Shown in pieces: positions 23,551-41,405 of a stretch of DNA of 64,000 nucleotides. The notes below the pieces were generated by a model. The model had not been told where the DNA came from and did no database searches. It was given only the letters and a program-made list of their open reading frames with translations. The translations under genes and the position numbers were made by a program. The first letter of the stretch is position 1; every line of letters begins with the position of its first letter. Source of the stretch: an uncultured Pseudomonadota bacterium (GTDB lineage: Bacteria; Myxococcota_A; Polyangia; Fen-1088); assembly GCA_963847705.1 (NCBI GenBank), contig CAWKBC010000010.1:1-64000 (forward strand), in the 5' to 3' direction.

Positions 23551-24897
23551 TCAGCGCGGTGGAAAGGTGCCGGCGCTCCGGCGCAGGGCCAGATCGGCGA
23601 TCGCCGCGTTGAAGCGAGCCTCGGCCAGCGACTCCTGGGCGATGACCAGGTTGTCCTGCGCATTGAGCAGATCGATCTGGGCCACGGTCCCCGCTTCGTA
23701 CTGCGAACGGACGAGCTCCAACGTCTCCTGGGCCAGCTCGTCGCCCCGCTGCGCGGCCTTGATCCCCTCCCGCCTGGTCTCGAGCAAGCTGCGGTTGTTG
23801 GCCAGATCGTCGCGGATGGAGTCGGTGAGCACGGCGGCCTGCGCCGCCGCCTGCGCCGCCTGCGCCGCCGCCAGGTGGCGCTGCGCGTCCCGCGTGCCGC
23901 CGTCGAACAATGTCCAGTCGAGCTCCGCTCCCACCGACCAGGCGTAGTTGTCGCCGGTGAAGCCGACGTAATTGCCGATGTTGGCCTTGGCGAAGGCCGA
24001 CAGCGTGGGCGCCCACTGCCAGGCGTGGGCGCGGCGCTGAGCATCGAACGCTTCCTGCGAGAGGATGACGCTGCGGAACTCGGGCCGCAGGTGCAGGGCC
24101 AGGTCGAGATCGGTCTCTCCGGGCGGTGGCAGCGCCTCGGGTGGCACCGCCTTCAGCGGTCCGTCGGCCTGGATCAACGTGGCGAGCGCCCGGTACGACT
24201 GCTCCTGCGCGTAGCGCGCGTCGAGCTCCCCCTGTTTGGCGCGCACCAGCGCCAGCTCGGCGCGGTCGACGTCGACCTTGGTGACGGTGCCGGCGGAAAA
24301 CCGGCTCTGCGCGTTGTCCAGCGTCGCCTGGGCGACCTTGATCGCCGAGTCCCGGACCAGCAACACCTCGTCGGAGACGGCCGCCGCGTAGAACGTCTGG
24401 GCCACCGAGTAGAGGACGGTGTCCTCCGAGGCCTGGAAGTCCGCCTCCGATGAACCGTAGCCCTTCTTCACCGCGTCGAGCGCCGGGTAGGCGGCGGGCG
24501 CGATGAGCGGCATGGTGGCGCTGATGTTGGCGTCGAACTGGTCCTGCTTGAGGATCGTGACGTTGTAACTGCCGTTCGAGGCCCCTGGCATCGGCGTGAA
24601 GCCGAGACCCATGAGCAACGCCCCGAAGTCGAGCGTGGCGTTCTTGTAGTTGCGGGTGAACCTTCCCTGCGCGGCAACCACCGGGAACAGCGCCGACCAG
24701 GCCTGCTCGATGTTGGTGTGCGCCGCGGCCAGCCGCGCGCGCTCGACGACCAGGTTCTTGTTGGCGCGCTTGGCCATCGCCAGCGCTTGCTCCATGGTCA
24801 GCTCGCGTGGGGCAGGGGCCGCCGTCTGGGCGCGCGTGACCACCGGGGCCAACGCCAGCAGCGCCACGGTCGCGGAAACAACGGCTGCTCTTCTCAT
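23551..24897 (-). CDS. TolC-family outer-membrane efflux protein
   Basis: Signal peptide MRRAAVV..., two OEP repeats (RFSAGTVTKVDV; QYEAGTVAQIDLLNAQ); alternative in-frame starts up to 24942. Confidence 0.9.
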   Translation of the reverse strand: MRRAAVVSATVALLALAPVVTRAQTAAPAPRELTMEQALAMAKRANKNLVVERARLAAAHTNIEQAWSALFPVVAAQGRFTRNYKNATLDFGALLMGLGFTPMPGASNGSYNVTILKQDQFDANISATMPLIAPAAYPALDAVKKGYGSSEADFQASEDTVLYSVAQTFYAAAVSDEVLLVRDSAIKVAQATLDNAQSRFSAGTVTKVDVDRAELALVRAKQGELDARYAQEQSYRALATLIQADGPLKAVPPEALPPPGETDLDLALHLRPEFRSVILSQEAFDAQRRAHAWQWAPTLSAFAKANIGNYVGFTGDNYAWSVGAELDWTLFDGGTRDAQRHLAAAQAAQAAAQAAVLTDSIRDDLANNRSLLETRREGIKAAQRGDELAQETLELVRSQYEAGTVAQIDLLNAQDNLVIAQESLAEARFNAAIADLALRRSAGTFPPR

Positions 24898-24953
24898 CGT
24901 CGAATCTCTCATCATCGGATCTCTCACTGTCGGATCTCTCACTGTCGGATCTC
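24894..24953 (-). repeat. Four 15-bp tandem units at the RND-stop / TolC-start junction
   Basis: + strand tcatcgtcgaatctc, tcatcatcggatctc, then tcactgtcggatctc twice. Confidence 0.9.
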
Positions 24954-27900
24954 CACCACCGGCGGTGGGCCGTGCCCGTTGGCGGCCGCCAGCTGTTCGG
25001 GCTTGGGCATGATCTCGTCGGCGCCGGTCTCGGAGTCGGGGCGCGTCTTCAGCCGCAGCACGCGGCGGGTCCAGTTGGCCAGATCGTCGAACAGCGAGTA
25101 GGCGACCGGCGTCGCCAGCAGCGTGAGCAGCAGCGACAGGATCTGACCGCCGACCACCGGGCCGGCGGTGGCGCGGTTGAACTCGGCGCCGATCCCCTTG
25201 GAGGTGAGCAGCGGGAGCATGCCGGCCACGAACGCCATGGTGGTCATCAAGATGGGGCGCAGACGGTCGCGGTTTCCGTGCAGGATGGCGTCGAGCCGCG
25301 AGTGCCCCTCGGCGCGCAGCTGGTTGATGTGGTCGATCTGGAGGATGGAGTTCTTCTTCACCACGCCGAACAGCACCAGGACACCGAGCATGGTGAAGAT
25401 GTCCAGCGACTGCCCCAGGACGAGGAGCGAGATCAACGCGAACGGCACCGTCAGCGGCAGCGCCAGCAGGATGGTGATCGGGTGCAGCCAGGACTCGAAC
25501 TGCGCCGCCAGGATGAGGTACATGAAGATGAACGACATCCCGAAGGCCAGGAGGAAGGCCTTGCCGGTGCGGGCGATCTCCTTGGACTGCCCGAACGGCA
25601 CGAAGCGGAACTGCGACGGGAGGTTCAGCTGCTTGACCGCCTTTTCGAGCGCCGCCCCCACCTCGCCCGAGCCGACGCCGGGCGACGTGTTGGCCAGGAA
25701 GGTCACCTGCACCTGGCGCGCGTAGCGGTCGATCTTCGAGGGGCCCTCGGCGCGCTTCATCTCCACGACGTCGAGGAGGGGCACCGAGCCCAGCCGCGAG
25801 GAGGGGACGGTGAGCTGCGCCAGCGCGTCGGGGCTGTTGCGGAAGGACTCGTCGGCGCGCACCAGGATGTCGTACTCCCGTCCCGCCTCCTCGTAGCGAG
25901 AGACCTTCACCCCGCCGATCAAGAGCTGCGACGCGGTCGCCACGTCGGCGACGTTGACGCCCAGATCGGCCGCCTTGCGCCGGCTGACGGTGGCCACCAG
26001 CTCGGGGTTGCCGGTGACCAGCGTGGTGTCGACGTCGACCGCGCCGGGGATCGCCTTCATCTTGTCGACGATCTTCTGGGAGTAATTGATGACGCCGTTC
26101 AGGTCGGGCCCGGTCAGGATGTACTGCACCGTCGCCGTGCTGAAGGTGCCGCCGCCGAAGGCCGCCACCGCGGAGGCGCTGATGCGGAATTCCTTGGGCT
26201 GCTTGGGGACGATCTGGGTGCGCACCCGGGCCTGCAGCTCGTCCTGCGACACCTTGCGCTTGTCGGGCGGCAAGAGGCGCACGAAGATGGAGGCCAGGTT
26301 GGGCGTCTGCTGGCTGTTGTCGCCGATGGTGACCAGCGTGGTCGAGACCTCCGGCCAGCCGCGCACCTCGCGGGCGATCCGCTCGGCGGAGAGCGCGGTG
26401 GCCGCCAGGCTGCTCCCCTCCGGCGTCCGCAGGCTGATCTCGAACTGCGCCTCGTCGTTCTTCGGCAAGAAGCCCTTGGGAACCGCCTTGGCCAGGGGGC
26501 CGATGGCGACGATGGCGCCGACCGCGGCGATCACCACGATCCAGCGGTGCCGCATCACGAAGGCCAGCACCTTCATGTAGAAGCGCTCGATCGGCAGGTA
26601 GAACCCGTCGACCAGCCGCTCGAGGAACGACTTGCGCCGCTCGCTGTCCGGGCGCAGGTCGAGCCGCAGCCAGCGCGACGCCAGCATCGGCGTCAGGGTG
26701 AAGCTGACGAACAGCGAGATGGCGATGGCGGCGCCCATCGTCAGGCCGAAGCTGCGCAGGAAGCGCCCCGGGATGCTGTTCATGAAGGCGACCGGAAGGA
26801 AGACGGCCAGCAGCGACAGCGTCGTCGCCAGCACGGCCAGGCCGATCTCCTTGGTGGCGTAGATCGCCGCCGGCATCGGCCGGATCTTCTTCTCGTTGAC
26901 GAAGCGAAAGATGTTCTCCAGCACGACGATGGCGTCGTCGATGACGATGCCGACCGCCAGCGCCAGCGCCAGCAGCGAGATGGTGTTCAGCGTGAACCCC
27001 ATCAGCCACATCAGCAGGAAGGTCCCCACGATGGACGTCGGAATCGCCAGCGCCGCGATGATGGTGCTGCGAAAGTTTCCCAGAAAAAGCAGCACCACCA
27101 GCGAGGCCAGGATCGACCCCAGCACCAGGTGCTCCTTGACCGCGTCGACGCTGGTGCGGGTGGTCTCCGTGTTGTCGCGGATGACCTCCAGCTTGTAGCC
27201 CGAGGGCATCGAGGGGGCCAGCTCCTTCATGCGCTCGCGCAGCGCGTCGACCACCGCCACGCTGTTCTCGCCGGACTGCTTGCGGATGGAGAGCACGACG
27301 GCCTCTTTGCCGGCGATGCTGGCGGCGGTGGCGGCCTCTTCTTGACCGTCGATCACCTGCCCGACGTCGCGGATCATGATCGGGTGATTCTCGACGTTGC
27401 GGATGACGATCTCCCCCACCGCCTCCGCGCTCGGCACGCGGCCGCTCACCCGGAAGGTGAGCAACGACGGGCCGGTGTCGACCGTTCCGCCGGGCGTGCT
27501 GACGTTCTGACTGACGATGGCCCGCTGCACGTCGACCGCGGTCAGCGAGGCCGCGCGCAGCCGCTCGGGATCGAGCACCACCTGGATCTGGCGCTTGCGC
27601 CCGCCGACGATCGACACCTGGCCGACGCCGGAGACGTTCTCCAGCGCCTCGCGGATCTCGTGGTCGGCGTACTCGGTCACCTCCCGGATGGGACGGGTCG
27701 ACTGCAAGGCCAGAAAAAGCACCGGCGCGGCGTCGGGATCCAGCTTGCTGATCTCCGGGCTCTTGGTCCCCTCGGGCAGATCGTTCAGGATCGTGGAGAC
27801 GTGCTCGCGCACCTCCTGCGCCGCGACGTTGACGTCCTTGTCGAGCTTGAAGCTGACGATGACCTGGGAGACGCCCTCGGTCGAGATCGAGCGCAGCTCG

Positions 27901-28136
27901 TCGATGCCGTTGATGGTGTTGATCGCCTCCTCGATCTTGTCGGAGAGCTCGGTGGCGATCTCCTCCGGCGCGGCACCGGGCAGGGTGGTGATCACCTGGA
28001 CGACCGGCAGATCGACGTTGGGGAAGCGATCGACGTTGAGCTGCTTGTAGCCGACGATGCCGACCACCACGATGAACAGGATGAGCACGGTCGCGAAGAC
28101 CGGGCGGCGAACGCAGATACTGGCCAGCCACTGCAT
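24939..28136 (-). CDS. RND efflux permease (AcrB/MdtBC-like)
   Basis: RRPVFA, GIVIDDAIVVLEN, KKNSIL, RLRPILMTT; 1065 aa. Confidence 0.95.
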   Translation of the reverse strand: MQWLASICVRRPVFATVLILFIVVVGIVGYKQLNVDRFPNVDLPVVQVITTLPGAAPEEIATELSDKIEEAINTINGIDELRSISTEGVSQVIVSFKLDKDVNVAAQEVREHVSTILNDLPEGTKSPEISKLDPDAAPVLFLALQSTRPIREVTEYADHEIREALENVSGVGQVSIVGGRKRQIQVVLDPERLRAASLTAVDVQRAIVSQNVSTPGGTVDTGPSLLTFRVSGRVPSAEAVGEIVIRNVENHPIMIRDVGQVIDGQEEAATAASIAGKEAVVLSIRKQSGENSVAVVDALRERMKELAPSMPSGYKLEVIRDNTETTRTSVDAVKEHLVLGSILASLVVLLFLGNFRSTIIAALAIPTSIVGTFLLMWLMGFTLNTISLLALALAVGIVIDDAIVVLENIFRFVNEKKIRPMPAAIYATKEIGLAVLATTLSLLAVFLPVAFMNSIPGRFLRSFGLTMGAAIAISLFVSFTLTPMLASRWLRLDLRPDSERRKSFLERLVDGFYLPIERFYMKVLAFVMRHRWIVVIAAVGAIVAIGPLAKAVPKGFLPKNDEAQFEISLRTPEGSSLAATALSAERIAREVRGWPEVSTTLVTIGDNSQQTPNLASIFVRLLPPDKRKVSQDELQARVRTQIVPKQPKEFRISASAVAAFGGGTFSTATVQYILTGPDLNGVINYSQKIVDKMKAIPGAVDVDTTLVTGNPELVATVSRRKAADLGVNVADVATASQLLIGGVKVSRYEEAGREYDILVRADESFRNSPDALAQLTVPSSRLGSVPLLDVVEMKRAEGPSKIDRYARQVQVTFLANTSPGVGSGEVGAALEKAVKQLNLPSQFRFVPFGQSKEIARTGKAFLLAFGMSFIFMYLILAAQFESWLHPITILLALPLTVPFALISLLVLGQSLDIFTMLGVLVLFGVVKKNSILQIDHINQLRAEGHSRLDAILHGNRDRLRPILMTTMAFVAGMLPLLTSKGIGAEFNRATAGPVVGGQILSLLLTLLATPVAYSLFDDLANWTRRVLRLKTRPDSETGADEIMPKPEQLAAANGHGPPPVVEIRQ

Positions 28137-28145
28137 GACGGTCCC

Positions 28146-29234
28146 CTACTTCACGCGCGCGCCGTCGCGCACGTCCGGAGTGAGCTCTGCGACCACCTGC
28201 TCGCCGGCCTTGAGGCCGCTGACGATGGGGACCTGGCTCCCCAGCTTGTCACCCGCCTGGACCAGGCGATCCTCGAGGCGCCCGCTCACGGCGACGTAGA
28301 CGTGGCGGAGGGTGCCGTCGCTCCGCACCGCCGTGGCCGGAATGGCCGGCAGGTCCTGCTCGCCGACGGCGAGCCGCGCGGTGACGAACATGCCCGGCCG
28401 CAGCTCGTGCGTGTCGTTGGCGAACACCGCCTCCACCACCGCGTCGCGGCTCTGCTTGCGCACCGACGGTCCGACATAGCGGATCTTGCCGTTGTAGACC
28501 CGCCCGCCGCTTTCGCCGGCCGTGCGGAAGCTGACCTCCATCCCCTGGCGCACCAGCGCCACATCGGACTCGGGGACGGTGATCTCCACCCGCAGCGCGT
28601 CGGTGTTGACCAGCGTGACCACGCGCGAGTCGACCCGCACGTACTCCCCCGCGGTGACCGCGCGCTCTTCGACCATCCCGGAAAACGGCGCGCGGATCTC
28701 GGTGTCGCGCAGCGCCTCGGCGGTCAGCGTCTTCCTGGCCTCCGCCGCCTCGACCGACCACTTGGTGGTCTGGCACTGGGTGCGCGCCTTGTCGTAGTCG
28801 GACTGGGAGATGGCCCCCTTGGCGTTGAGGCGCTCGACGCGGCCGCAGTCGAGCGCGGCCCCGGCTGCCTGCGCCTTCATCGACTCCGCGTCGGCCGCGG
28901 CTTGCGCTGCCTGGGCGCTGACCGCCCGAGAATCGAGGCGCGCCAGGATGGCCCCTTTCTTCACGATCGACCCGCGCTCGACGTAGGTGGCGATCACCTT
29001 GCCGGCGGCGCCGGCGGCCACCTGCGCCTCTTCGGAGCCGATGAGCGACCCCGAGAGCGTCACCACCCGCGGCGTCTTCATCACCTCGGCGGCGACCAGC
29101 TTCACGGCGATGGGCGCCGCCTCCGTGTCGGTGCTGGGTGCCGCCTCCGCCCCCGACCGCCCGCAACCGGCGGCGCCGGCCAGCGCGATCGGCAGCACAA
29201 TCAAGGACCAACGGCTCCAAGCCTCGATTCGCAT
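28146..29234 (-). CDS. RND periplasmic adaptor (MFP), probable lipoprotein
   Basis: Lipobox AAGC, IRAPFSG, LRPGMF, GLKAGEQVV; start ATG 29234 or 29258. Confidence 0.92.
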   Translation of the reverse strand: MRIEAWSRWSLIVLPIALAGAAGCGRSGAEAAPSTDTEAAPIAVKLVAAEVMKTPRVVTLSGSLIGSEEAQVAAGAAGKVIATYVERGSIVKKGAILARLDSRAVSAQAAQAAADAESMKAQAAGAALDCGRVERLNAKGAISQSDYDKARTQCQTTKWSVEAAEARKTLTAEALRDTEIRAPFSGMVEERAVTAGEYVRVDSRVVTLVNTDALRVEITVPESDVALVRQGMEVSFRTAGESGGRVYNGKIRYVGPSVRKQSRDAVVEAVFANDTHELRPGMFVTARLAVGEQDLPAIPATAVRSDGTLRHVYVAVSGRLEDRLVQAGDKLGSQVPIVSGLKAGEQVVAELTPDVRDGARVK

Positions 29235-29357
29235 GACCCTTTTCGTCTCGTCTTTCATGGATTCTCTCGTCGCGAAGGGGTGGTCGGGTTCAGGGTGTAG
29301 TCGTATACGACGATATTTGACCTTGTCAATCATCAAAAGTGTGGACAATATACATTC

Positions 29358-29894
29358 ATGACCTTGAGGGGAGCTCCACCGCCGGATGGCCTGCCAGGCC
29401 ACCCCGAGCCGGATTCGGGCGGGCCGCCTCACGTCCAGGCGGACGACGCCTGGGCCACGGTCATCTCGCTCTGCTTCAGCGTCCGGGACTGGTGGAGCGC
29501 GCTCTGCGAGGAGCTCGACCTCACGCCATCGCAAGGGATGGCGCTCAAGAACCTCGATCGCCCGCTGCCGATGAGCACGCTCGCCGACGTGCTGGCCTGC
29601 GACGCCTCCAACGTCACCGGGATCGTCGACAAGCTGGAGTCGCGCGGCCTCATCGCCCGCCGCGGCGCCGATCATGACCGGCGGGTGAAGATGCTCTGCG
29701 TGACCGACCTCGGACGCTCGTTGCGGGACCGGCTGGTCAAGCGGCTGCTCGAGCCCCCGGCCGCGCTGGCGGCGCTCCCGCTCGACCTCAAGACCCGCCT
29801 GACCGCCACCCTGCGCAAGGTGATCGGCGAGCTGTCTGACCCGGCTGCCGTCGAAGAGCAGCGCCGGCGCTCCCTCCCCGTCGCCCGCGGCTGA
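29358..29894 (+). CDS. MarR-family transcriptional regulator, divergent from the efflux operon
   Basis: LTPSQ, CDASNVTGIVDKLESRGLI, DRRVK..TDLG. Confidence 0.92.
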   Translation: MTLRGAPPPDGLPGHPEPDSGGPPHVQADDAWATVISLCFSVRDWWSALCEELDLTPSQGMALKNLDRPLPMSTLADVLACDASNVTGIVDKLESRGLIARRGADHDRRVKMLCVTDLGRSLRDRLVKRLLEPPAALAALPLDLKTRLTATLRKVIGELSDPAAVEEQRRRSLPVARG

Positions 29895-29921
29895 TCCGGC
29901 CTGGCTGCCTGCAGCAGCGGA

Positions 29922-29985
29922 AATTTCGGTAGTGGGTCAGTTTGAAAGCTTGCCGCCTTTTTCAAACTGACCCACTACCGAAATT
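29922..29985. repeat. Perfect 26-bp inverted repeat with 12-nt spacer (REP/REPIN-like hairpin)
   Basis: AATTTCGGTAGTGGGTCAGTTTGAAA (29922-29947) and its exact reverse complement (29960-29985). Confidence 0.9.
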
Positions 29986-30176
29986 CCGCGGAGCTGCGTC
30001 GCAGCCCCCGCTGCGGCCGGTGGCGTCCTTCGTCGCCCGGTGACCTCTCCGACAGCGGGTCGGACACCGCAGCGATCGGGGAAATGCTTGTTCCCGCAGG
30101 CAATCTGCTAGCATGAGCCGCTCATTTGTCTTCAGGGCGTTGGGGCAGGCTCCCGGATAGACCAAAGGAGGCGACG

Positions 30177-31676
30177 GTGGGTCCGGAACGCAGCGGGGTC
30201 TGCTTCACGATTGGCGGCTGGCTCTCGACGCTGCTCATAGTTTCAGTTCTTCCGTCTTCGGCGCACGCGGCGCCGGTCGTTTCGCCGGTCGGGGGTGCCC
30301 CGGCGGCACCCCCAGCGCCGCCGCTGAGTCTGGCCGCGGCAGCCCCGCCCGCGGAGCCGCTGCCCGCCGAGGCGGACCCGGCCGAGGAGGTCACGCCGTC
30401 CCCCCCCTCCAACGCCTCCCCCCTGGTCGTGACCGGCTACGTCGACGTCGGGTTCGCGAAGGCGCAGGGAGATGGCACCAGCTTCCCGGCCTCGTTCGGC
30501 CCCGGACAGCCGCCGGGGCCCGCGGACTACTACGTCGATACCTTCGCGCCCGCGGTGAACTCGCGCGGGGAGGCGGCGTCGATCGCGGCGCCTCCCGGCA
30601 CCAGCATCGCCGGTTTCTTGCCGCGCTCGGCGGGGATCGGCGGAAAACCGTCCTTCCTCATCAACACGGCGGACGTCGATCTTCGTTACACCGCGCCCGA
30701 GCTTCCCATCATGATCTTCACGCGGCTCCAGGTCCTGCCGCGGCTCTACAACCCGATTCCCATGACCACGCCGACCACGCCCGACACCAGCGAGGGGATG
30801 CCCGCCGGGGAGTACACGCGTCTCTACCTCGAGCAGGCGTTCGGCCGCATCACACCGCTCAAGAGCGCCGAGCTGGCCATCAGCCTCGGCAAGTTCGATT
30901 CCGTGTTCGGCATCGAGTACCTCGACAACGAGGCGAACTTCCGCGTCGGCGTCACGCCCTCGCTCATCGCCCGCTACACCACCGGGCAATCGACCGGCCT
31001 CAAGCTCTTCTATCGCTACCAGATCATCCCCGCCTCGTCGGCGATCAGCGTCAATGTCGCGGCGACCAACAGCGGGACGTTCGTCGAGGCGCTGCAGGGG
31101 CCGTCGCGCAGCCTGACCGGCGTCCCCATGGTCGCGGGGCGCCTGGGCTACGAGCTGAACCTGCCGCGGGTGTCGATCAAGGTCGGCGGCAGCGCGGAGT
31201 ACGGCGCGCGCAACGATCAATACCTGACGACGCAGGCCCCGGAGACGCTGCTGGGGTTCGACGTGCGGATCATCTTGCCGACGCTGGTGCTCTCCGGCGA
31301 GTACGTGCACGTCGAAGAGGAGGACGCCGGTGACTCCCTGCCCGGGGTGACGGTCCCCAAGCTGGCGGGCACCGGCAGCTACCCGGAGATCACCGAGTTC
31401 TATGCGCACGGCTTCTGGATCCAGGCGGCCGAAGAGCTGCCGCTGCCGATTGACCCGTTCCGCCTGACGCTCTACGCGCGCTACGAGCAACGGCACGGAC
31501 AGTTCCCCGACTTTGCCGGCGCGACGATCCTGGTCGCTCGAATCACCGGCGGGCTCAACGTCGGCCTCGGGGAGAACCTCCAGCTCAAGGCCGAGTACCT
31601 GGTGAACCAGGAGCTCGAAGGCGCGCCCCAGGTCGCCAACAACGTCTTCACCTCGTCGGCGGTCTGGACGTGGTGA
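30177..31676 (+). CDS. Putative outer-membrane porin / beta-barrel
   Basis: AAGGAGG RBS before GTG 30177; signal peptide, Pro-rich linker, VTGYVD, LEQAF, GKFDSVFGIE, C-terminal AVWTW. Confidence 0.75.
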   Translation: MGPERSGVCFTIGGWLSTLLIVSVLPSSAHAAPVVSPVGGAPAAPPAPPLSLAAAAPPAEPLPAEADPAEEVTPSPPSNASPLVVTGYVDVGFAKAQGDGTSFPASFGPGQPPGPADYYVDTFAPAVNSRGEAASIAAPPGTSIAGFLPRSAGIGGKPSFLINTADVDLRYTAPELPIMIFTRLQVLPRLYNPIPMTTPTTPDTSEGMPAGEYTRLYLEQAFGRITPLKSAELAISLGKFDSVFGIEYLDNEANFRVGVTPSLIARYTTGQSTGLKLFYRYQIIPASSAISVNVAATNSGTFVEALQGPSRSLTGVPMVAGRLGYELNLPRVSIKVGGSAEYGARNDQYLTTQAPETLLGFDVRIILPTLVLSGEYVHVEEEDAGDSLPGVTVPKLAGTGSYPEITEFYAHGFWIQAAEELPLPIDPFRLTLYARYEQRHGQFPDFAGATILVARITGGLNVGLGENLQLKAEYLVNQELEGAPQVANNVFTSSAVWTW

Positions 31677-31713
31677 GGGCGACCGGCAACGGAAAACGAG
31701 GACACCACACCCG

Positions 31714-32808
31714 ATGCGGATGAGGACTGAAAGCCAGCTCTTGCAGCTCTCGATCGCCGGGTCGCTCGCGCTTTGTCTGCTTGGCGCCGGGCGCGGCGCC
31801 TCCGCCGCGGGCAGCGAGGCGAAGTGGCTGGGCGACGAGCTGCCGCTGCCGCTGCCGGTGAAGACGCCGCAGGACATCGGCTTCAAGTCGGCCGCCGAGC
31901 GCCAGTACCTCATCTTCAACTTGATGGCGGGCGGCAAGCTCGCCTACCAGCGCGGCGACCACGCCGGGGCGGTCGACAAGTGGGAGACTTTGCTGCGCAT
32001 GCCGGGCCTCGATCCCCAGATCGCACGGGCGGTGGAACCTTTCCTGGATGATGCCCGCGTCCGGCTGGGACAGCCGGCGACGCCGGGGACCCACGTCGAA
32101 CCACCGCGCACCGAGCCCGAGGCCGCCGAACCGCCTCCTGTCGAGGACAAGCCGTCCGCCGAGGCGCACGGGCACGCCGGACCGACGCTCACCCACCACC
32201 CCGCCGGCACGGTGACGGTGAGCGGCACGGTGAGCGGCGGCGGACAGATCGGCCCCGGCGGCGCCGTGCTCTGGCTGCGGCGGCTGGACGGCCCCACGCC
32301 GCACGTGACCCCCGCGCAGAACCAGATCATCACCCAGCGCGACAAGACCTTCCTGCCGCACGTGCTGGCGGTCCCGCTCGGCACCTCGGTGCAGTTCCGC
32401 AACGACGACCGCATCTATCACGACATTTTTTCCATCGCCAAGCCGAACGAGTTCGACGCCGGCATCCGGGCCACCGGCGCGACGTACACCAAGACCTTCA
32501 CCCACCCGGGCGTCGTCGAGCTGCTCTGCAACATCCACTCGGCGATGAGCGCCTACGTGCTGGTGGTCGACTCGCCGCTCTACGCCAAGGCGCAGGCGTC
32601 GGGCAACTTCGTCGTTCATGGGGTGGCCCCCGGTCGCTACGAGCTGTCGGCCTGGCACGAGGCGGCCTCCACCATCACCCGCAAGCCCATCACCGTGGGA
32701 CCGGCAGGCGCCCACGACCTGGCGGTGTCGGTCGGCGGAGACAAGCGACCGAGCCCGTTCGTCCCCGACAAGTACGGGCATAAGCGCCAGCCTCAGCTAG
32801 GATACTGA
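31714..32808 (+). CDS. Exported cupredoxin-domain protein (MauL/methylamine-utilization-like) with N-terminal helical domain
   Basis: QRDKTFLPHVLAV..GTSVQFRNDD..HDIFS and CNIHSAM supply His/Cys/His/Met type-1 Cu ligands; carboxypeptidase-regulatory-like GRYELSAWH. Confidence 0.82.
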   Translation: MRMRTESQLLQLSIAGSLALCLLGAGRGASAAGSEAKWLGDELPLPLPVKTPQDIGFKSAAERQYLIFNLMAGGKLAYQRGDHAGAVDKWETLLRMPGLDPQIARAVEPFLDDARVRLGQPATPGTHVEPPRTEPEAAEPPPVEDKPSAEAHGHAGPTLTHHPAGTVTVSGTVSGGGQIGPGGAVLWLRRLDGPTPHVTPAQNQIITQRDKTFLPHVLAVPLGTSVQFRNDDRIYHDIFSIAKPNEFDAGIRATGATYTKTFTHPGVVELLCNIHSAMSAYVLVVDSPLYAKAQASGNFVVHGVAPGRYELSAWHEAASTITRKPITVGPAGAHDLAVSVGGDKRPSPFVPDKYGHKRQPQLGY

Positions 32809-32835
32809 CCGCCTTAGACCAGGGGGGCTGTGGAC

Positions 32836-32917
32836 GGATGGGACCCCGCATGGGATCCAGGATAGGACTCGCGACGGGACTCGCGACGGGGCTCGCGATG
32901 CGACCGCGACGGGACCC
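32836..32917 (+). repeat. Seven degenerate ~12-bp tandem units in the intergenic region
   Basis: ggatgggacccc / gcatgggatcca / ggataggactcg / cgacgggactcg / cgacggggctcg / cgatgcgaccg / cgacgggaccc. Confidence 0.7.
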
Positions 32918-32929
32918 GAAAGGGGAGCG

Positions 32930-34843
32930 GTGAAGAGACGCGCCAGAGCGCTCCTCGCGGCGCTGGCGATCCTCGCCCTGTCGCTGGCCGCGGCCATCGT
33001 CCTGGGGCGCCTCGAGCGCGCGCGCGTCGGCGGGCGGCTGGTCGACGAGGCGCGGGCCGCCGGGCTGCGCGCCTCCGACGGCGTGCGCACGCTGACGGCC
33101 ACCCTCGAGGCGCAGGTCGAAAACGGCACGGCCAACCCGCGCCTGGTCGCCGCGCTCGACGCCAAGGTCGACGAGGCGACGCTGCGCGATCTGCTCTACA
33201 CCGAGCCCTGGTGGGAGCCGTTCCGCCGCTCGGTCGACGGCTTCGGCGTCTACAGCGACGAGACCGCGGCGGTGGTGACCTCGCGGCTCCCTGCCCGATT
33301 CGAGGCGCGCGATCTGGTCCACGACGCGCGGCTCTCGCACCGGACAGCCTCGGGGCTGGTGGTGACCGGCGCGCAGGTGACGGCCGTTGCCGCCGCACCC
33401 GTCGCGCTCACCGATCGCTCGGATTGGCCGGTCCTGCTGGCCACGCGGGCGCTCGACGTCGGGATCCTCTCCGGGATCGCCGAGCGCGCGGGCGCCTCGG
33501 TCGCCCTCTCCGACGGCCGCCGGCTGCTGGTCGTGGCCACCGCCGCGGGTGCGACCGCCGCGCCCGACGCATCGAACGCGCCGGGCCTCGGACCGCTCGC
33601 GCAAGCGCTGGAGCTGCCGGCGCCGGGGGTCGGGACCTACGGCGGCGTGGCCGTGGCCGCGCTGCCGCTGGCCGGCGGGCTGCGCATCCTGGCCGGCGTG
33701 ACGGCGCCAGCGACCGCGCCGGGGGCGCTGCCGCTCCCCGCGGTGGTGCTGACGATCCTGGCGATTGGTCTCGCGCTGGCGATGGGGAGCTTCTTCCTGC
33801 TGGCGCGCCAGACGAAGGTGGACGGCGCTCCGTCCGTCGAGGTGACGACGGCCGGGGCGCTCTCCGTCATCGGTCGCTATACGCTGGTCGATCGCATCGG
33901 CCTGGGGGGGATGGCGGAGATCTACTCGGCCCTCACCACCGGCGAGGGGAGCTTTCGCCGCCCGGTGGTGATCAAGCGGCTGCGCCCCGAGCTGACGGCC
34001 GATCCCAACGCCGTGGCGCAGTTTTGCGACGAGGCCAACCTCCTGGCCGCCTTCCATCACCCGAACATCGTCGCGGTGCACGACTTCGGGCGCTGGGAGA
34101 ACCAGCTCTTCCTGGCCGAGGAGTACGTGCAGGGGCGCGACCTTGGCCGCCTGGTCCCCGCCAGCTTCTCGCGCGACGGCCGCCCGCCCCGGCCCGAGGT
34201 GATCGCCTACGTCGCGCACGAGATCCTGAAGGGGCTCGACTACGCGCACAGCATGGAGAACGAACGCGGTTGGATGGGGATCGTCCACCGCGACGTCTCG
34301 CCGGAGAACATCGTGGTCTCGCCGCGCGGCGAGGTGAAGCTGCTCGACTTCGGCGTGGTCAAGTCGACCGAGGGGCGGGCGGCCAAGACGGAGATCGGGG
34401 TGGTCAAGGGGAACGTGACGTACATGTCCCCCGAGCAGGCGCGGGGCCTGGAGGTCGACGCCCGCGCCGACCTCTTCTCGCTCGCGCTGGTGATGTACTT
34501 CTGCTGCACCGGCTATCCGCTCTACGCCGCCCACACGACCTACGGATTGTTGATGCAGGCGGGGGCCGGCCCGGGCGCCGACGAACGGACCGCCATCCAG
34601 ACGCTCCCCGACCCGATCGCCGCGGTGGTGCAGCGGGCCACCGACGCGGCGCTGGAGAGACGCTACGCCAACGCGCGCGAGATGGGGGCGGATCTGGAAG
34701 CGGCGGCCCGACAAGGTGGAGGCCCAGCCGCCGCGCTGGTGGCCGAGCTGTTCGGACCCGAGCTCAAGGAGGAGGCGCACCGGATGGCGAGCTTCCCGAT
34801 GGACGGAGCGCCCGTGCTGGCGGTCGACGTCTCGTCGCGCTGA
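32930..34843 (+). CDS. Membrane Ser/Thr protein kinase with periplasmic sensor domain
   Basis: TM-periplasmic-TM, then GLGGMAEIY, VIKRL, HRDVSPEN, DFG, YMSPEQ, DLFS. Confidence 0.92.
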   Translation: MKRRARALLAALAILALSLAAAIVLGRLERARVGGRLVDEARAAGLRASDGVRTLTATLEAQVENGTANPRLVAALDAKVDEATLRDLLYTEPWWEPFRRSVDGFGVYSDETAAVVTSRLPARFEARDLVHDARLSHRTASGLVVTGAQVTAVAAAPVALTDRSDWPVLLATRALDVGILSGIAERAGASVALSDGRRLLVVATAAGATAAPDASNAPGLGPLAQALELPAPGVGTYGGVAVAALPLAGGLRILAGVTAPATAPGALPLPAVVLTILAIGLALAMGSFFLLARQTKVDGAPSVEVTTAGALSVIGRYTLVDRIGLGGMAEIYSALTTGEGSFRRPVVIKRLRPELTADPNAVAQFCDEANLLAAFHHPNIVAVHDFGRWENQLFLAEEYVQGRDLGRLVPASFSRDGRPPRPEVIAYVAHEILKGLDYAHSMENERGWMGIVHRDVSPENIVVSPRGEVKLLDFGVVKSTEGRAAKTEIGVVKGNVTYMSPEQARGLEVDARADLFSLALVMYFCCTGYPLYAAHTTYGLLMQAGAGPGADERTAIQTLPDPIAAVVQRATDAALERRYANAREMGADLEAAARQGGGPAAALVAELFGPELKEEAHRMASFPMDGAPVLAVDVSSR

Positions 34844-34909
34844 GCGCCGCGCCCTGGCCGGCGGTCGGCGCGCCGAGCGCCCCGCCAGCCGAGCGGCCGG
34901 AACGCCGGC

Positions 34910-35713
34910 TCAGCGCAGAATCGCCTCGAGCGAGATCGTCAGCAGGAAGCCGGCCACCAGCCCCGCCGAGGCGACCCCTTCGTTCCCGTGGCTGTGCGAT
35001 TCGGGGATGATCTCGTTCGACGTCACGTAGGTGAGCGTCCCGCCGGCCAGCGCCAGCACGAACGGCATCGTCGCCACCGCCACGCCCGCCATCAGCTCGC
35101 CCAGGACGGCGGCGGCCGGGATGACCAGGCCGGTGAGCGCGACGATCGTGAACCCACGCCAGCGCTCCACCCCCTCGTGGCGCAGAGGGGCCGACATCAC
35201 GATCCCTTCACACACGTTCTGCACGCCGATGGCGACCGCCAGCAGGATCCCGAGGTGCATGGTGCGCGGGACCGCGAACCCCGCTCCGATCGCCAGCCCT
35301 TCGGGGATCCGGTGCAGGCTGAGCGCCCCGACGACCGCATAGGCGCGCCGCGGGGAGAGCGCCGGCTGGGGATCGTGCATGTCGTGTCCGGGCTCATGCC
35401 CCAGGTGCTCGTGGTGACCGCCGGCGTGCTGGTGCGGGATCAGGCGATCCATCGCGGCGGCGATCCCGGCGCCGACCGCGAAGCCGGAGACCACCAGCGC
35501 GAACCGCCCCAGGTGGAAGACGCCCCCGTCGTTGACGCCGCCGAGAGCCTCGGCGACGAGACCCAGCGTCGCCGCCGCCAGCATCAGCCCCGCGCCGAGG
35601 CCCAGGATTCCGTCGTAGGTTTTGCGAGGAAGCTCGCGCACGAACAGGAACGGCAGCGCCCCCAGGCTGGTGGCCAGCCCGGAGATGGCGGCGGGAAGAG
35701 TTCCGGCACCCAA
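34910..35713 (-). CDS. ZIP-family divalent metal transporter
   Basis: AAGLMLAA-like GAGLMLAA, His-rich loop HQHAGGHHEHLGH, LHRIPEGLAIG, QNVCEG, EIIPESH; start uncertain (TTG 35713). Confidence 0.9.
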   Translation of the reverse strand: MGAGTLPAAISGLATSLGALPFLFVRELPRKTYDGILGLGAGLMLAAATLGLVAEALGGVNDGGVFHLGRFALVVSGFAVGAGIAAAMDRLIPHQHAGGHHEHLGHEPGHDMHDPQPALSPRRAYAVVGALSLHRIPEGLAIGAGFAVPRTMHLGILLAVAIGVQNVCEGIVMSAPLRHEGVERWRGFTIVALTGLVIPAAAVLGELMAGVAVATMPFVLALAGGTLTYVTSNEIIPESHSHGNEGVASAGLVAGFLLTISLEAILR

Positions 35714-35738
35714 GGTCAGCTCACTATATACAGAGACG

Positions 35739-36452
35739 ATGTCGGGGCCAGGCGCGCAGACGGTAGAAAAACTGACCACGGTTTACCTCGCCTTCGGCTC
35801 GAACCTGGGCGACCGCGCGCGAACGATCGCCCGGGCGATCGAGCTGCTCGCGGCGGGCGGGGTCGTCCCCCTGGCGCGCTCGCCGCTCTATGAGACCGAT
35901 CCGGTCGCACCCGATCCACAGCCCGACTACCTGAACGCCGTGCTGCGCGCGAAGACGGCGCTGGGTCCGCACGCGTTGCTGTCGCTCGCCCTGGAGGTCG
36001 AGCGGGCGCTCGGCCGACGCCGGCCGGCCGGCCGCCCGCTGGCGCCGCGGGAGATCGACGTCGACCTCCTGCTCTATGGTGCCGAGGTGATCGCCGACCC
36101 GCCGGCGCTGATCGTCCCCCACCCGCGCCTCCTCGAGCGCCCGTTCGTGCGCATCCCCCTTCGCGACGTGGCGGCGCCGGGGCTGCGCCACCCCGTCACC
36201 GGCGAGCCCCTCGATCGCGCGGCGCCCGATCCGTCGGTCAGACCGGCGGGGGCGCGGGACCCATTCAGGGTCCCGAATGAAGCCGGATCAAACCCCGGCC
36301 AGGCGGCGCCTGAAATCCTCGATGGTCGCCGAGATGCCCTCTTCCAGGGAGATCTTGGGGCCCCAATTGTCGAGCAGCTTCTGGGCGCGGGAGATGTCGG
36401 GCTTCCGGCGGGTCGGATCGTCCTTGGGCAGCGGGGCCCTGATGATCTCTGA
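35739..36452 (+). CDS. folK: 2-amino-4-hydroxy-6-hydroxymethyldihydropteridine diphosphokinase
   Basis: [39 protein letters not shown]; C-terminal extension overlaps uxs. Confidence 0.9.
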
Positions 36453-37720: not shown

Positions 37721-38962
37721 ATGGTCCGCCGCACCTCGGGCACCGCCCTTTTGGCCCTGTTTTTGGCCCTCCCGCTGGTCGCCTCCCCGGCGTCGGCGCG
37801 CGAAAAAGATCCCAGGCCGCTCGAGCCTCTTTGGTCGATCAAGCCGCACGAGGGCACGCCGGGAGAGGGCGACGGCTACTTCGACGAGGTCTTCGGGCTC
37901 GACGACGCCGGCAAGCAGCTGGCGGTCATCCGCGGCGACGGCGCGACCTTCTCGAAGATCGAGACCTACGATCTCGAGGCCAAACCTCCGAGGTTGACCG
38001 CTTCGTTCGATCCCCCGAGCAAGAACCTGATCATCACGCGCATCGAGCTGCTGCCGGCCGGCAAGGGGATGGTCCTCATCGGGCGCGACAGGCCCGACGA
38101 CAGCGCCCCGCTCACCGCCTTCCTGGTCGACATGACCGGAAAGGTCTCCGCCAAGGTCGGCCCCGTGACGGCCTTCGAGCGGCCGCCTCAGGATGGCACG
38201 CCGCGCGCCACCCTGCTGGTCGCCTTCGACCGCAAGCTCGGCGGACGTGGGGCGGAAGCGACCTACACCGTCACCCCCTACACGCTGGCGACCCTGGCAC
38301 CGACCGGCCAGCTCGGAAAGCCACGCGCCTACAAGACCGACGTGGCAGGCGGGCTCAAGGCGCCGCCGGTCCGCCTCATCGGCTTCTACGAGGGATATAC
38401 GCGGATCCTGGGCGAGAAGCCGGGCGCCTACGACAAGGCGACCGATGTGCGTCAACCGCCCAAGAAGGTCGTCGTCGACGCGCTGACCGGCAAGACCGCC
38501 AGTGAAACCGAGATCGCCGATCCGGTCGGCTGGGCCGTCACCGGCCAGCTGCGCCGCGACCATCCCGGACAATCTCTCTTCGTCGACCTCAATCAAGACG
38601 GCTCGGGTGTCGATGTGATCGATGCGATGGGGAAAAAGGTTCCCGCCTCGCTGGAGGTCCCGTTCCATCTCTACGATCCCAAGACGCTTCTCTTCGAGGA
38701 AGGGCCGGCGCCCAACCAGCTGACGTTCGGGATCGGCGTCGATCCGCTGAACCCCGAGGCGATCAAGCGCAAGAAGGCGGAGCTGCCGATGCTCGACCTC
38801 TACGTCGCCGACACTGCCGACGGGGCGATCAAGGCGCGCGGGCGGGTCTTCACGCCACGTCCCGTGACCTATCGCGCCAGGGCCCAGACGCTGGTGGTGT
38901 TGAAGCGCTTCAAGAGCTTCGCCCGAGGGGGCGATGAGTTTCAGATCTTCGAGCTCCGTTAG
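37721..38962 (+). CDS. Exported hypothetical protein (beta-rich)
   Basis: Signal peptide ending ASA; normal composition; overlaps next gene. Confidence 0.7.
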
Positions 38963-39908
38963 CGCGGTCGCGCTGGCGCTCTGTCTTCTGTCCGCCTGCA
39001 GCCAGGTGCGCGGACGCAAGCGAATCCGCGAGGCGAACGAGCTCTACCACCGCGGCAAGTACGCCGAGGCGGTGACGCTCTACCAGGAGGCGGAGGCGAT
39101 GGTCCCGGAACTGCCCGCGCTCTGGCTGAATGAGGGCTACACCTGCCGGCAGCTGATCGCGCCCGGCGGTCACGATCCCGAGAGCCGCCGGGCCGCCGGC
39201 TGCGCGCTCGAGGCCTTCCGCCGGCTCGGCGAGGTGGCGCCCAGGGATCCGCGCGCCGGCGAGCTGACCTTGCAGACCTGGTTCGACATGCAGGATTATC
39301 CGTCGCTGGAGGCCGCGTACCTCGAGCGCCGCCGCCAGGCGCCCGACGACCTCGACGCGGTCCACGGCCTCCAGGACGTCTACTTCAAGTGGGGGAAGTG
39401 GCCGGAGGCGCTGGAGTGGTCGAAGCGGGCGGCGGCGCTGCGCGCCGACGACGCCGAGGCGCAATACGGCGTCGGCACCTTCGTCTGGCAGATCCTCTCC
39501 ACCCACGGCGGCGGCGCGCAGATGGCGGGCTACAGCCCCTGGCCCGACGTGGCCGGGGCCACGGGCTCGATGACCGTCGCGCCCCCGGCGGCCGCCAGCG
39601 GCGACATCACCGACAGCGCGCGCGTGGCGCTGGCCGATCAGGGGATCGCCTATCTGGAAAAGGCCCTCGCCCGGCGCCCCCGCTATCCGGAGGCGATGAC
39701 CTACCTGGCGCTGCTCTGGCGGCAAAAGTCGTTCGCCTTCTTCACCGATCCGATCGCCTGGCAGGGGGCCGTCGACGAGGCGGACACCTGGCAGCAGCGC
39801 GCAGCGATCTGTCGCGGGGACCCTCAAAGGGTCCCCGATCCCCCCCGCGAAGGACTTCGCCAAGCAGAGCTTGGCTCCGACGCGAACGCCCGTGCCGGAA
39901 GCTTGTGA
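38934..39908 (+). CDS. TPR-repeat lipoprotein
   Basis: Lipobox LSAC; ANELY..GKYAEA..LY; YLEKAL..P.YPEAMTYLALL. Confidence 0.8.
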   Translation: MSFRSSSSVSAVALALCLLSACSQVRGRKRIREANELYHRGKYAEAVTLYQEAEAMVPELPALWLNEGYTCRQLIAPGGHDPESRRAAGCALEAFRRLGEVAPRDPRAGELTLQTWFDMQDYPSLEAAYLERRRQAPDDLDAVHGLQDVYFKWGKWPEALEWSKRAAALRADDAEAQYGVGTFVWQILSTHGGGAQMAGYSPWPDVAGATGSMTVAPPAAASGDITDSARVALADQGIAYLEKALARRPRYPEAMTYLALLWRQKSFAFFTDPIAWQGAVDEADTWQQRAAICRGDPQRVPDPPREGLRQAELGSDANARAGSL

Positions 39909-39911
39909 TCG

Positions 39912-40688
39912 GTGGCGTTCGAGGCCTTTCGCGCGGAGTCTCGGCCACGCCCGGCGCGCGGGCGGCTCACGGTTGCGCTGTCGATCGCCTTTCACGGCGC
40001 CCTGCTGGCGGCGGGGATCGCCTATTCGTTCTGGCACGTCGACGAGCTGACGCCGCCGTCGGTGAAGGTGACCTTCCTGTCAGCCGCGCCGCCACCGCCG
40101 CCCCCTCCCCCGCCCGCCGGTGGCGGCGGAGCGGCCCGCAAGAAGGCGGTGGTCAAGCCGAAGACCGCGATCAAGCCGACCGACCTGGTCCAGCCGCGCG
40201 AGACGCCCGAGGAGAAGCCGAAGGAGAGCAAGCCCGACCCGAGCGACGGCCCCGGCGAGCGGGGCGGCGTCAAAGGGGGCGTCATCGGCGGGACCATCGG
40301 GGGCACGATCGGCGGGACCATCGGCGGCAAGATCGGTGGAGAGATCGGAGGCACCAAGGGGGGCGTCATCGGCGGGACGGTCGGCGGAACCGGGCCGGCG
40401 CGGAAGTTCCTGCCGCCGAACATGGGTGCCTTGCAGAAAGAATCGGGTGAGATGCCGGCGCTCCCTCCATCCCTGAACCGCGCCGGCGCCAGCTACGTGG
40501 TGAGCGCCAAGATCTGCGTGGCGCGCACGGGCACCGTCGAGAGCGTCACCGTCGTTCAGCGCGCCGATTCGTTGCTCGACGACGACGTCGTACGCGCCGT
40601 GAAGGGGTGGCGCTACCGCCCGCTCATGGCGGACAACCTCGCCGTCCCGTTCTGTTACTTCGGACGGTTCGAGTTCACGAGCCACTGA
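39912..40688 (+). CDS. tonB: Energy transducer TonB
   Basis: TM with SxxxH (SIAFH), poly-Pro, GGxI repeats, TonB_C-like GTVESV...AVKGWRYRP. Confidence 0.82.
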   Translation: MAFEAFRAESRPRPARGRLTVALSIAFHGALLAAGIAYSFWHVDELTPPSVKVTFLSAAPPPPPPPPPAGGGGAARKKAVVKPKTAIKPTDLVQPRETPEEKPKESKPDPSDGPGERGGVKGGVIGGTIGGTIGGTIGGKIGGEIGGTKGGVIGGTVGGTGPARKFLPPNMGALQKESGEMPALPPSLNRAGASYVVSAKICVARTGTVESVTVVQRADSLLDDDVVRAVKGWRYRPLMADNLAVPFCYFGRFEFTSH

Positions 40689-40715
40689 CAGGAAGCCGTA
40701 AAAAGGGGAGACACG

Positions 40716-41405
40716 ATGGACTTCACGCTGGTCGGACTCTGGAACGAGATGGGCTTCACCGCCCGGGCGGTCGTGGTGGTGTTGATCGTCATGTCGCTCT
40801 ACGCGCTGGCCATCGCGGGCGATCGGCTGCTCACCTTCCGCAAGGGGCGCAAGCAGTCGCGCGGCTACGTCGAGGCGCTGGCGCCGCTGGTCGAGGCGGC
40901 CGGACGGCTGCGCGAGGCGGTCGGCCTGGAGAAGCGCTTCGTCGGCAGCCCCGTGGCCAAGGTGATCGGCGCCGGGCTGCACGAGTACGCCCGCGGTCTG
41001 GACCGCCCGGCCGGGAGCGGCACGCTGCCGTCGTTCGACGTCGCCGAGATCGTCAACCGGGTGATGGAGCGGAACAAGGAGCGGGAGCTGGCCGGGTTGC
41101 GGCGCGGGATGCCGGTGCTGGCGACGGTCGCCTCGTCGGCTCCGTTCGTGGGTCTCTTCGGCACCGTGGGGGGCATCATCACCGCCTTCCAGAAGCTCTC
41201 CGACCCGACCAAGGGGGGCGGCGGCATCGGGACCGTCTCGGCCGGCATCGCCGAGGCGCTCATCACCACCGCCGTCGGGCTCGGCGTGGCCATCATCGCC
41301 GTCTGGTTCTACAACTACTTCACCGCCCGGCTCGACGACCTGACCATCGACATCGACGAGACCGCCTCCGAGCTGGTCGACACCATCCTGCGGGGCGGCG
41401 TGTGA
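40716..41405 (+). CDS. exbB: MotA/TolQ/ExbB proton-channel protein
   Basis: SAPFVGLFGTVGGI, GIAEALITTAVGL. Confidence 0.93.
   Translation: MDFTLVGLWNEMGFTARAVVVVLIVMSLYALAIAGDRLLTFRKGRKQSRGYVEALAPLVEAAGRLREAVGLEKRFVGSPVAKVIGAGLHEYARGLDRPAGSGTLPSFDVAEIVNRVMERNKERELAGLRRGMPVLATVASSAPFVGLFGTVGGIITAFQKLSDPTKGGGGIGTVSAGIAEALITTAVGLGVAIIAVWFYNYFTARLDDLTIDIDETASELVDTILRGGV

Follow-up and report, generated by a model that had tools for sequence, protein, structure and literature searches.

A 64,000-nucleotide window, comprising positions 1-64000 of contig C10 in a 6.1 Mb, 85% complete genome of an uncultured bacterium, contains three co-directional genes for a predicted outer-membrane porin, an exported cupredoxin, and a receptor Ser/Thr kinase with a predicted periplasmic dCache domain. 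Analysis of gene neighborhoods revealed that this cupredoxin family adjoins membrane sensors with six kinds of output, namely Ser/Thr kinase, His kinase, GGDEF-EAL, nucleotide cyclase, chemoreceptor, and PP2C. The system is real, conserved and apparently uncharacterized; in it, sensing would be controlled by an accessory protein and the receptor would be a type-1 copper protein. On balance we think it probable that the exported cupredoxin is the periplasmic redox receptor of the adjacent kinase, with the porin granting access. Close cupredoxin homologs carry the label Polyangia bacterium, and the Atlas clusters of the cupredoxin are mostly from Myxococcota.

The diversity of outputs was observed at several levels of taxonomic sampling. 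Within the phylum we drew 401 genomes, 114 of them with the cupredoxin, and examined 40 top-ranked, hand-picked matches. By our own count, the cupredoxin lies beside a sensor with two transmembrane (TM) helices in about 25 of these 40 loci (two are cut or split), and the sensor outputs include Ser/Thr kinases, hybrid or simple His kinases, GGDEF-EAL proteins, class III cyclases, methyl-accepting chemotaxis proteins (MCPs), and SpoIIE. Among at least 597 GTDB loci, we analyzed the best 80, which are mostly proteobacterial and biased toward the Comamonas query; 79 of them have a related dCache_3 sensor, 35 a truncated globin, 34 a DUF3034 gene, and 18 a DUF4394 gene. The outputs found in GTDB include a His kinase in Rokubacteria, a cyclase in Verrucomicrobiota, and GGDEF-EAL in Nitrospirota. 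An even draw of proteobacterial genomes gave the cupredoxin in 30 of 301 genomes, with a sensor at 19 of the 30 best loci. The preliminary description of the window had proposed a modular pathway with exchangeable outputs, which these gene neighborhoods bear out, and had mentioned a proteobacterial operon of a barrel, a MauL-like protein and a GGDEF/EAL sensor. Such an operon does exist, with the RefSeq annotations DUF3034, group 1 truncated hemoglobin, methylamine utilization protein, and EAL domain protein.

Several loci have other arrangements. In MCP, His kinase and EAL cassettes, a second, ligand-less MauL-like paralog precedes the barrel (L047:4783-5349, L042:4529-5071, L046:4609-5145). 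A globin-cupredoxin fusion is followed by a dCache membrane protein in which no kinase domain was detected at L296:5356-6591 and L297:5162-6370; at L045:5437-9532 and L051, such a fusion lacks a sensor and is accompanied by DUF4331 and TPR genes. At L388:3952-7515, genes for DUF3034, a truncated globin and the cupredoxin are followed by an extracytoplasmic function (ECF) sigma factor and an RskA-type anti-sigma factor, with no dCache sensor; this pair is a possible seventh output. Related cupredoxins at L062, L069, L072 and L075 are flanked on one side by an exported protein without annotation, which has a single CxxCH motif, and on the other by Rieske/cytochrome-like genes; they belong to a distinct module that is probably respiratory. 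A cupredoxin tree (71 rows, built by a quick method) is roughly grouped by partner type, with deep forks unresolved; in it, the cupredoxin of a record titled Synechococcus (L165) groups with Comamonas, and that contig is probably mis-binned.

The gene order of the window is conserved in its metagenomic relatives, for which the best 80 of 95 confirmed loci were kept and 79 counted. Of the 57 loci with sufficient upstream DNA, 54 have the porin ahead of the cupredoxin, and a related dCache sensor comes after the cupredoxin in 49 of 54. All three genes are found together in 27 of 28 informative loci (25 under our first, stricter rule), in agreement with the co-occurrence expected from the preliminary description. 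Many relatives carry, ahead of the porin, an unannotated lipoprotein of about 400 amino acids (L001:10042-11283) that has no match in Pfam or NCBIfam and is absent from the window copy. At three of the five loci that lack the kinase, an FKBP gene takes its place; at L115:1062-1940, L140, L121 and L123, an exported FKBP-type isomerase stands between the cupredoxin and a ZIP transporter gene instead of the kinase. No relatives were found on viral contigs.

A six-frame profile search of the source genome identified four close and three distant cupredoxins, three porins, and four dCache kinases. Only four of the 70 Ser/Thr kinase open reading frames (ORFs) in this genome have such a dCache domain and three of these four adjoin a MauL-like cupredoxin, and thus the pairing is above chance. 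The four cupredoxin-kinase pairs comprise three adjacent ones (in the window, on contig C32, and at C10:161-164k) and a split one. The C32 locus encodes a porin, a coiled-coil cupredoxin and a kinase, while at C10:161-164k a lipoprotein truncated hemoglobin fused to a cupredoxin is encoded upstream of the kinase. The fourth pair is a lipoprotein-porin-cupredoxin cassette without a kinase on contig C29 and a kinase without a cupredoxin on contig C27. We had considered the C27 kinase as a member of another cassette (L150-type), and abandoned this assignment after all 15 of its loci proved to lack a cupredoxin within 1.5 kb. We now read the C27 kinase and the C29 cassette as a putative split operon, because four other genomes (G480, G482, G402, and G485; L329-L332) have a contiguous kinase-lipoprotein-porin-cupredoxin operon in the same upstream ABC-accessory context. 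Across 89 genomes of the order, 67 contain both families, 19 neither, three the cupredoxin only and none the sensor only, with a cupredoxin profile that also picks up distant paralogs.

The 364-residue cupredoxin consists of a signal peptide (residues ~1-31), a TPR-like hairpin (~60-120), a Pro-rich linker, and a cupredoxin domain with a CarboxypepD_reg-like beta-sandwich (165-364). The ligands H236, C272, H275 and M278 are retained in 84, 83, 84 and 83 of 84 aligned homologs, respectively, so that the intact ligand set described earlier is practically invariant. The copper-site loop is short and amicyanin-like (C-x2-H-x2-M), and profile matches to solved cupredoxins have E-values from 3e-8 to 1e-5 (amicyanin 3e-8, plastocyanin 2e-7, pseudoazurin 3.5e-7). 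By its ligands and this homology, the protein is a predicted type-1 (blue) copper protein; a single-protein Pfam scan matched no cupredoxin family. The extra helical N-terminal domain of the preliminary description is present as a single TPR-like repeat, and the C-terminal sandwich had been missed; weak TPR matches were found in 15 of 22 homologs, none above the cut-off and none in the window copy. A tblastn search linked the protein to RefSeq entries named methylamine utilization protein (E-values 2e-17 to 1e-14, 29-38% identity), a family that we take to be MauL. Methylamine dehydrogenase genes are absent from the locus, and PF06433 and PF02975 had no match in the incomplete genome in a search run without a control match. 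A C-terminal tail (32761-32805) with a K-x-G-x(n)-Y pattern is common to many myxococcal cupredoxins and absent from proteobacterial ones; it lies outside the interface predicted below.

The porin gene (product of 499 residues) starts with GTG, 5 nt downstream of the ribosome-binding site AAAGGAGG (30164-30171). The AlphaFold2 model of its product has 16 long strands at moderate confidence (mean predicted local distance difference test, pLDDT, of 66; predicted template modeling score of 0.72), and the best Foldseek matches are 16-stranded porins, including OmpT of Vibrio, chitoporin, DcaP and OprP (E-values 4e-10 to 6e-9). The strands are antiparallel in this model, and the protein has a signal peptide and a C-terminal aromatic residue, as in 16-stranded porins. 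The outer-membrane beta-barrel claimed earlier is thereby supported by both the model and its structural matches. In sequence searches, the porin scored below the cut-off of Pfam BBP2 (PF07642; 18.1 vs 26.2 bits, with paralogs at 21-22 bits), and a search of PDB sequences gave one chance match only.

The kinase (637 residues) comprises TM1 (7-25), a periplasmic dCache domain (26-268), TM2 (~272-290), and a Hanks kinase domain (~317-590), with no HAMP domain; hydrophobic peaks are found at 7 and 272. The catalytic residues K349, E368, H453-R454-D455, N460 and D473-F474-G475 are present, the Pkinase match has an E-value of 5e-32, and the sequence has the Gly loop, Lys, alphaC Glu, HRD, DFG and SPE elements of Hanks-type Ser/Thr kinases. 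The predicted topology of the preliminary description is therefore confirmed, and the model now identifies its periplasmic domain as dCache. This model (pLDDT 90.8) has a long N-terminal helix and two PAS-like modules between the two TM helices, and its top Foldseek match is LuxQ (E-value 2.7e-7), with Mlp24, PctA and Tlp3 also matched. The window kinase does not reach the Pfam dCache_3 (PF14827) cut-off, having only a CHASE4 match (E-value 0.035), whereas the proteobacterial partner sensors do exceed it. No relative of the domain was found by a sequence search of the PDB. For the three proteins, NCBIfam offers no name except the generic kinase and a weak halocyanin match.

A single co-folding job with three controls combined dCache residues 26-268 (40 alignment rows) and cupredoxin residues 165-364 (84 rows). 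The score was 0.62, compared with 0.00 for the best control; the runs share at least 89% of contacts, and the partner pLDDT was at least 88. Solved pairs attained the mark in 116 of 157 cases and mismatched pairs in two of 215, counts that are only roughly applicable here. Binding of the cupredoxin to the kinase dCache domain, for which the preliminary description had suggested co-folding, is thus supported by the model. The predicted interface joins sensor residues 71-94 (R71, A74, A75, A78, V80, D81, A83, T84, D87, L88, E92, P93 and W94) to K211, R233-D237, G250-A253 and N273-A277 of the cupredoxin. In this model the most conserved sensor helices lie over the exposed copper-ligand histidine H275, which the interface patch surrounds and E92 contacts. 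Conservation averages 0.94 in the interface columns of the sensor versus 0.67 in the domain, a difference equaled in none of 10,000 random draws, uncorrected for burial. In every one of 26 cupredoxin-sensor pairs, the contacts E92:H275 and D87:K211 are preserved unchanged. Across 83 proteobacterial sensors, the corresponding segment likewise ranks with the best-conserved ones.

Within this segment, a clear A-x(4-5)-D-x-x-T motif can be discerned in 17 of 32 sensors, which represent several types of output; in generic dCache_3 sensors, D-R prevails at the motif site. A hidden Markov model of the docking segment, a partly circular control because it was built from cupredoxin-linked sensors, scored no more than 1.9 bits in 29 of 30 generic dCache_3 sensors, all without a cupredoxin within 1.5 kb; the remaining one has both the segment (51 bits) and the cupredoxin. 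Co-variation across the interface (A53:I87 versus G:L, and E58:R69 versus D/G/A/R:P, in domain numbering) was dismissed as independent evidence since it rests on one paralog split.

To what signal the system responds can be approached through its neighbors. In the 136 loci where cupredoxin and sensor occur together, a sample enriched in kin, the recurrent neighbors are truncated globins (39 loci), DUF3034 (38), window-type porins (26), DUF4394 (19), lipoproteins (14), another probable barrel (9), and ZIP transporters (6). Nearly all of the globins have N-termini resembling export signals, many with lipoboxes, and globin-cupredoxin fusions recur in several loci. Genes of the di-heme peroxidase type flank the cupredoxin at L002, L049, L343 and L382. 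No copper exporter or chaperone family was found among the 29 of the top 45 neighbor clusters that could be named with Pfam. Since the recurrent partners are exported globins and di-heme peroxidases rather than copper-handling genes, redox is favored over copper as the signal, and these neighbors suggest that the copper site receives electrons or a gas. Of the two signals that the preliminary description had left side by side, redox or copper, the neighborhoods thus lean to the former.

The mechanism that we consider on balance probable can be outlined as follows. The porin likely admits an oxidant, reductant or gas from outside to the cupredoxin. The latter, according to the prediction, contacts the tip of the dCache domain through its copper-site face, where exposed H275 meets the invariant sensor residue E92. 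If the redox state of the copper center changed, this contact would be altered and the kinase thereby switched, with transmission through TM2 to kinase dimerization. In amicyanin-type sites, the equivalent ligand histidine changes state upon reduction. The components of this proposal differ in strength: a dedicated cupredoxin-sensor partnership is very likely, functional coupling of the porin is likely, and, given the partnership, redox as the read-out is rather likely.

A number of observations weigh against this proposal. In 15 of the 40 phylum loci there is no adjacent sensor, and Rieske/cytochrome genes, azurin-like proteins, DUF4331 or nothing clear is found instead. An adjacent sensor is also missing from 11 of the 30 evenly drawn proteobacterial loci; three of these 11 have a barrel and the cupredoxin only (L379-L381), one has a barrel, a globin and ECF sigma/anti-sigma factors, and seven have neither or are distant. 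The kinase is missing in five of 54 close loci that keep the cupredoxin, and the porin in three loci. Conversely, at none of 15 orthologous loci does a cupredoxin lie within 1.5 kb of the C27-type kinase, and two EAL sensors with the docking motif stand alone (L275 and L276). The D-x-x-T motif is unclear in two and not found in 13 of the 32 sensors, and the joint absence in the order-wide profile mostly reflects two genera, not 19 events. Comparison of the window dCache with the other sensor groups by hhalign gave E-values of 0.001, 0.001, 0.04 and 0.06, against 0.09-0.77 for shuffles; because this overall profile similarity is weak, we infer a common origin of the sensor groups from fold, topology and docking motif. 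Finally, the window cassette has no adjacent globin or peroxidase, and two rival readings, based on copper occupancy and on tethering to the porin, therefore stay live.

In the former, the complex is the same and the signal is copper availability, so that the porin admits copper and the apo and holo forms of the cupredoxin bind the sensor differently. Because the copper site lies within the predicted interface, its occupancy could be read as easily as its redox state; a His-rich ZIP transporter adjoins in 18 of 24 long close relatives, and the porin and cupredoxin have no other obvious ligand site. Yet the named recurrent neighbors include no copper-homeostasis family, the commonest partner is the exported and sometimes fused globin, and ZIP is rare among the sensor-linked loci and retained upon kinase loss, which leaves copper sensing unlikely. 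On the latter reading, the cupredoxin is held at its TPR-like or coiled-coil N-terminal domain by the porin, or else by the lipoprotein encoded ahead of it, and is released under envelope stress, as in the partitioning switches YfiBNR and RcsF, with copper structural or secondary. It would account for the porin being a more constant neighbor than the sensor in close relatives, for the recurrence of unrelated barrels beside the cupredoxin (BBP2-like, DUF3034, alginate-export-like and others), and for the sensor-less barrel-cupredoxin pairs. We regard it as improbable: proteobacterial cupredoxins have no extra N-terminal domain, DUF3034 occurs in fewer than half of the best GTDB loci, and the strict retention of four ligands together with docking by the copper face points to the metal site as signal carrier.

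Slightly less probable still is that the dCache domain alone senses a small ligand entering by the porin, the cupredoxin being merely a co-regulated electron carrier. Domains of this type often bind small molecules (accessible part of PMC8846402), as the Foldseek matches to Mlp24, PctA and Tlp3 also suggest; stand-alone C27-type kinases and EAL sensors exist, and distant cupredoxin relatives occur in respiratory clusters (Rieske, CtaA/SCO). Against this stand the co-fold result, with its interface on the most conserved surface, the docking segment retained by the stand-alone C27 kinase, which would be half of a split operon, and the order-wide survey, where no genome has the sensor without the cupredoxin.

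By analogy, the three-gene system probably operates in the manner of LuxP-LuxQ or PruR-DcpA, except that its receptor would be a copper center, and it is a member of neither. In LuxP-LuxQ of Vibrio (PDB 2hj9, 3c38), the signal is read through a separate periplasmic protein (available text of PMC8534201). Both systems combine a dCache/tandem-PDC sensor with a separate periplasmic partner; in the window, however, the partner is a type-1 copper protein rather than a solute-binding protein, the output is a Hanks kinase, and a porin gene is attached. As far as the accessible part of PMC11194511 goes, PruR of Agrobacterium has a SUOX-like fold and binds a pterin, DcpA has a predicted four-helix periplasmic domain, and PruR-DcpA and NspS-MbaA share with our system a small exported protein that is encoded directly upstream of a two-TM sensor; this protein binds a cofactor and the periplasmic domain of the sensor, as is predicted for ours, and the outputs vary between GGDEF/EAL and His kinase. 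The present system differs from PruR-DcpA, within that same portion, by its folds (cupredoxin and dCache), six outputs, and barrel and globin partners, and from the NspS-MbaA type by a cupredoxin in place of a periplasmic solute-binding protein. In IsmP-ImcA of P. aeruginosa, a metal-dependent contact between proteins, involving a Cache-clan domain, controls a signaling enzyme, as is proposed here, but there the CHASE4 domain itself binds iron (PMC10904736, in the part accessible), whereas the metal site of the window system is in a separate cupredoxin.

Another close arrangement is the proteobacterial DUF3034-globin-cupredoxin-EAL operon, which is known from RefSeq annotation and uncharacterized. 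It resembles the window cassette in its homologous cupredoxin (32-38% identity), dCache sensor with the A-x(4-5)-D-x-x-T motif and outer-membrane barrel; in contrast, the window cassette has another barrel family, a TPR-like domain, a kinase without HAMP, and no globin (which is fused to the cupredoxin in a paralogous locus). The YfiBNR operon of Pseudomonas also combines outer-membrane, periplasmic and inner-membrane parts, namely a peptidoglycan-binding lipoprotein (YfiB), YfiR, which is not known to have a metal site, and an inner-membrane component, unlike the porin and copper protein of the window. Blue-copper proteins are known as electron carriers, and the literature searched did not describe any that serves as receptor for a transmembrane sensor. 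Nor did the searches, with subscription papers and supplements outside their scope, give any description of such a cupredoxin-sensor system, in line with the preliminary description, which knew of no characterized example. Term searches of the accessible portions of PMC11904497, PMC13492106 and PMC8846402 returned no mention of cupredoxin.

The coordinates of the analyzed features are listed in the table. The three ORFs, correctly placed in the preliminary description at 30177-34843, are separated by 37 nt (porin-cupredoxin) and 121 nt (cupredoxin-kinase), and a further 66 nt separates the kinase from the convergent His-rich ZIP gene, which had also been noted. We rejected ZIP as a system component and consider it probably a bystander in local synteny.

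Table. Features of the porin-cupredoxin-kinase locus in the window.
Feature	Position	Strand	Evidence
Predicted 16-stranded outer-membrane porin (BBP2 / Porin_O_P-like), signal peptide, Pro/Ala-rich N-terminal linker	30177..31676	+	model, Foldseek
Exported MauL-like cupredoxin	31714..32808	+	profiles, homolog alignment
Type-1 copper ligand codons H236 (32419), C272 (32527), H275 (32536), M278 (32545)	32419..32547	+	
Receptor Ser/Thr kinase, TM-dCache-TM-Hanks kinase	32930..34843	+	Pfam, model, motifs
Predicted dCache docking segment, residues 71-94	33140..33211	+	co-fold, conservation
His-rich ZIP (ZupT-like) transporter, convergent neighbor	34910..35779	-	Pfam Zip 7.9e-23

A promoter and terminator scan of 29200-36000 returned no sites and is uninformative at the local GC content. 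Between the marR and porin genes lies a perfect 26-bp inverted repeat with a 12-nt spacer (29922-29985), present in a single copy in the genome, AT-richer than its flanks, and located where relatives have the lipoprotein gene; it could be a terminator-like hairpin or an operator. Four imperfect direct repeats with a 12-nt period are found in the cupredoxin-kinase gap (32858-32925). An ordinary resistance-nodulation-division (RND) efflux operon on the minus strand, with a divergent MarR gene, occupies 23551-29894, and we do not favor MarR (29358-29894) as the cassette regulator in view of this divergent position. Downstream, 37721-41926 holds a cluster for a TPR protein, TonB, ExbB/TolQ and an ExbD-like protein together with an unannotated 413-residue exported protein.

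Extended to the whole family, our proposal would make MauL-like cupredoxins widespread periplasmic redox receptors, in which a globin or di-heme peroxidase feeds the copper center, the porin provides access, a dCache segment reads the histidine and passes the signal to any output, and co-varying interfaces insulate paralogs; we offer this broader scheme tentatively, as somewhat less than an even prospect. The idea is testable because the predicted interface is defined between two small soluble proteins. If true, it would assign an input to a cyclic di-GMP enzyme present in many Proteobacteria and to one class among the numerous myxobacterial Ser/Thr kinases that are still orphans. Exported truncated hemoglobins would gain a signaling role, and thousands of genes annotated as methylamine utilization protein would be reinterpreted.

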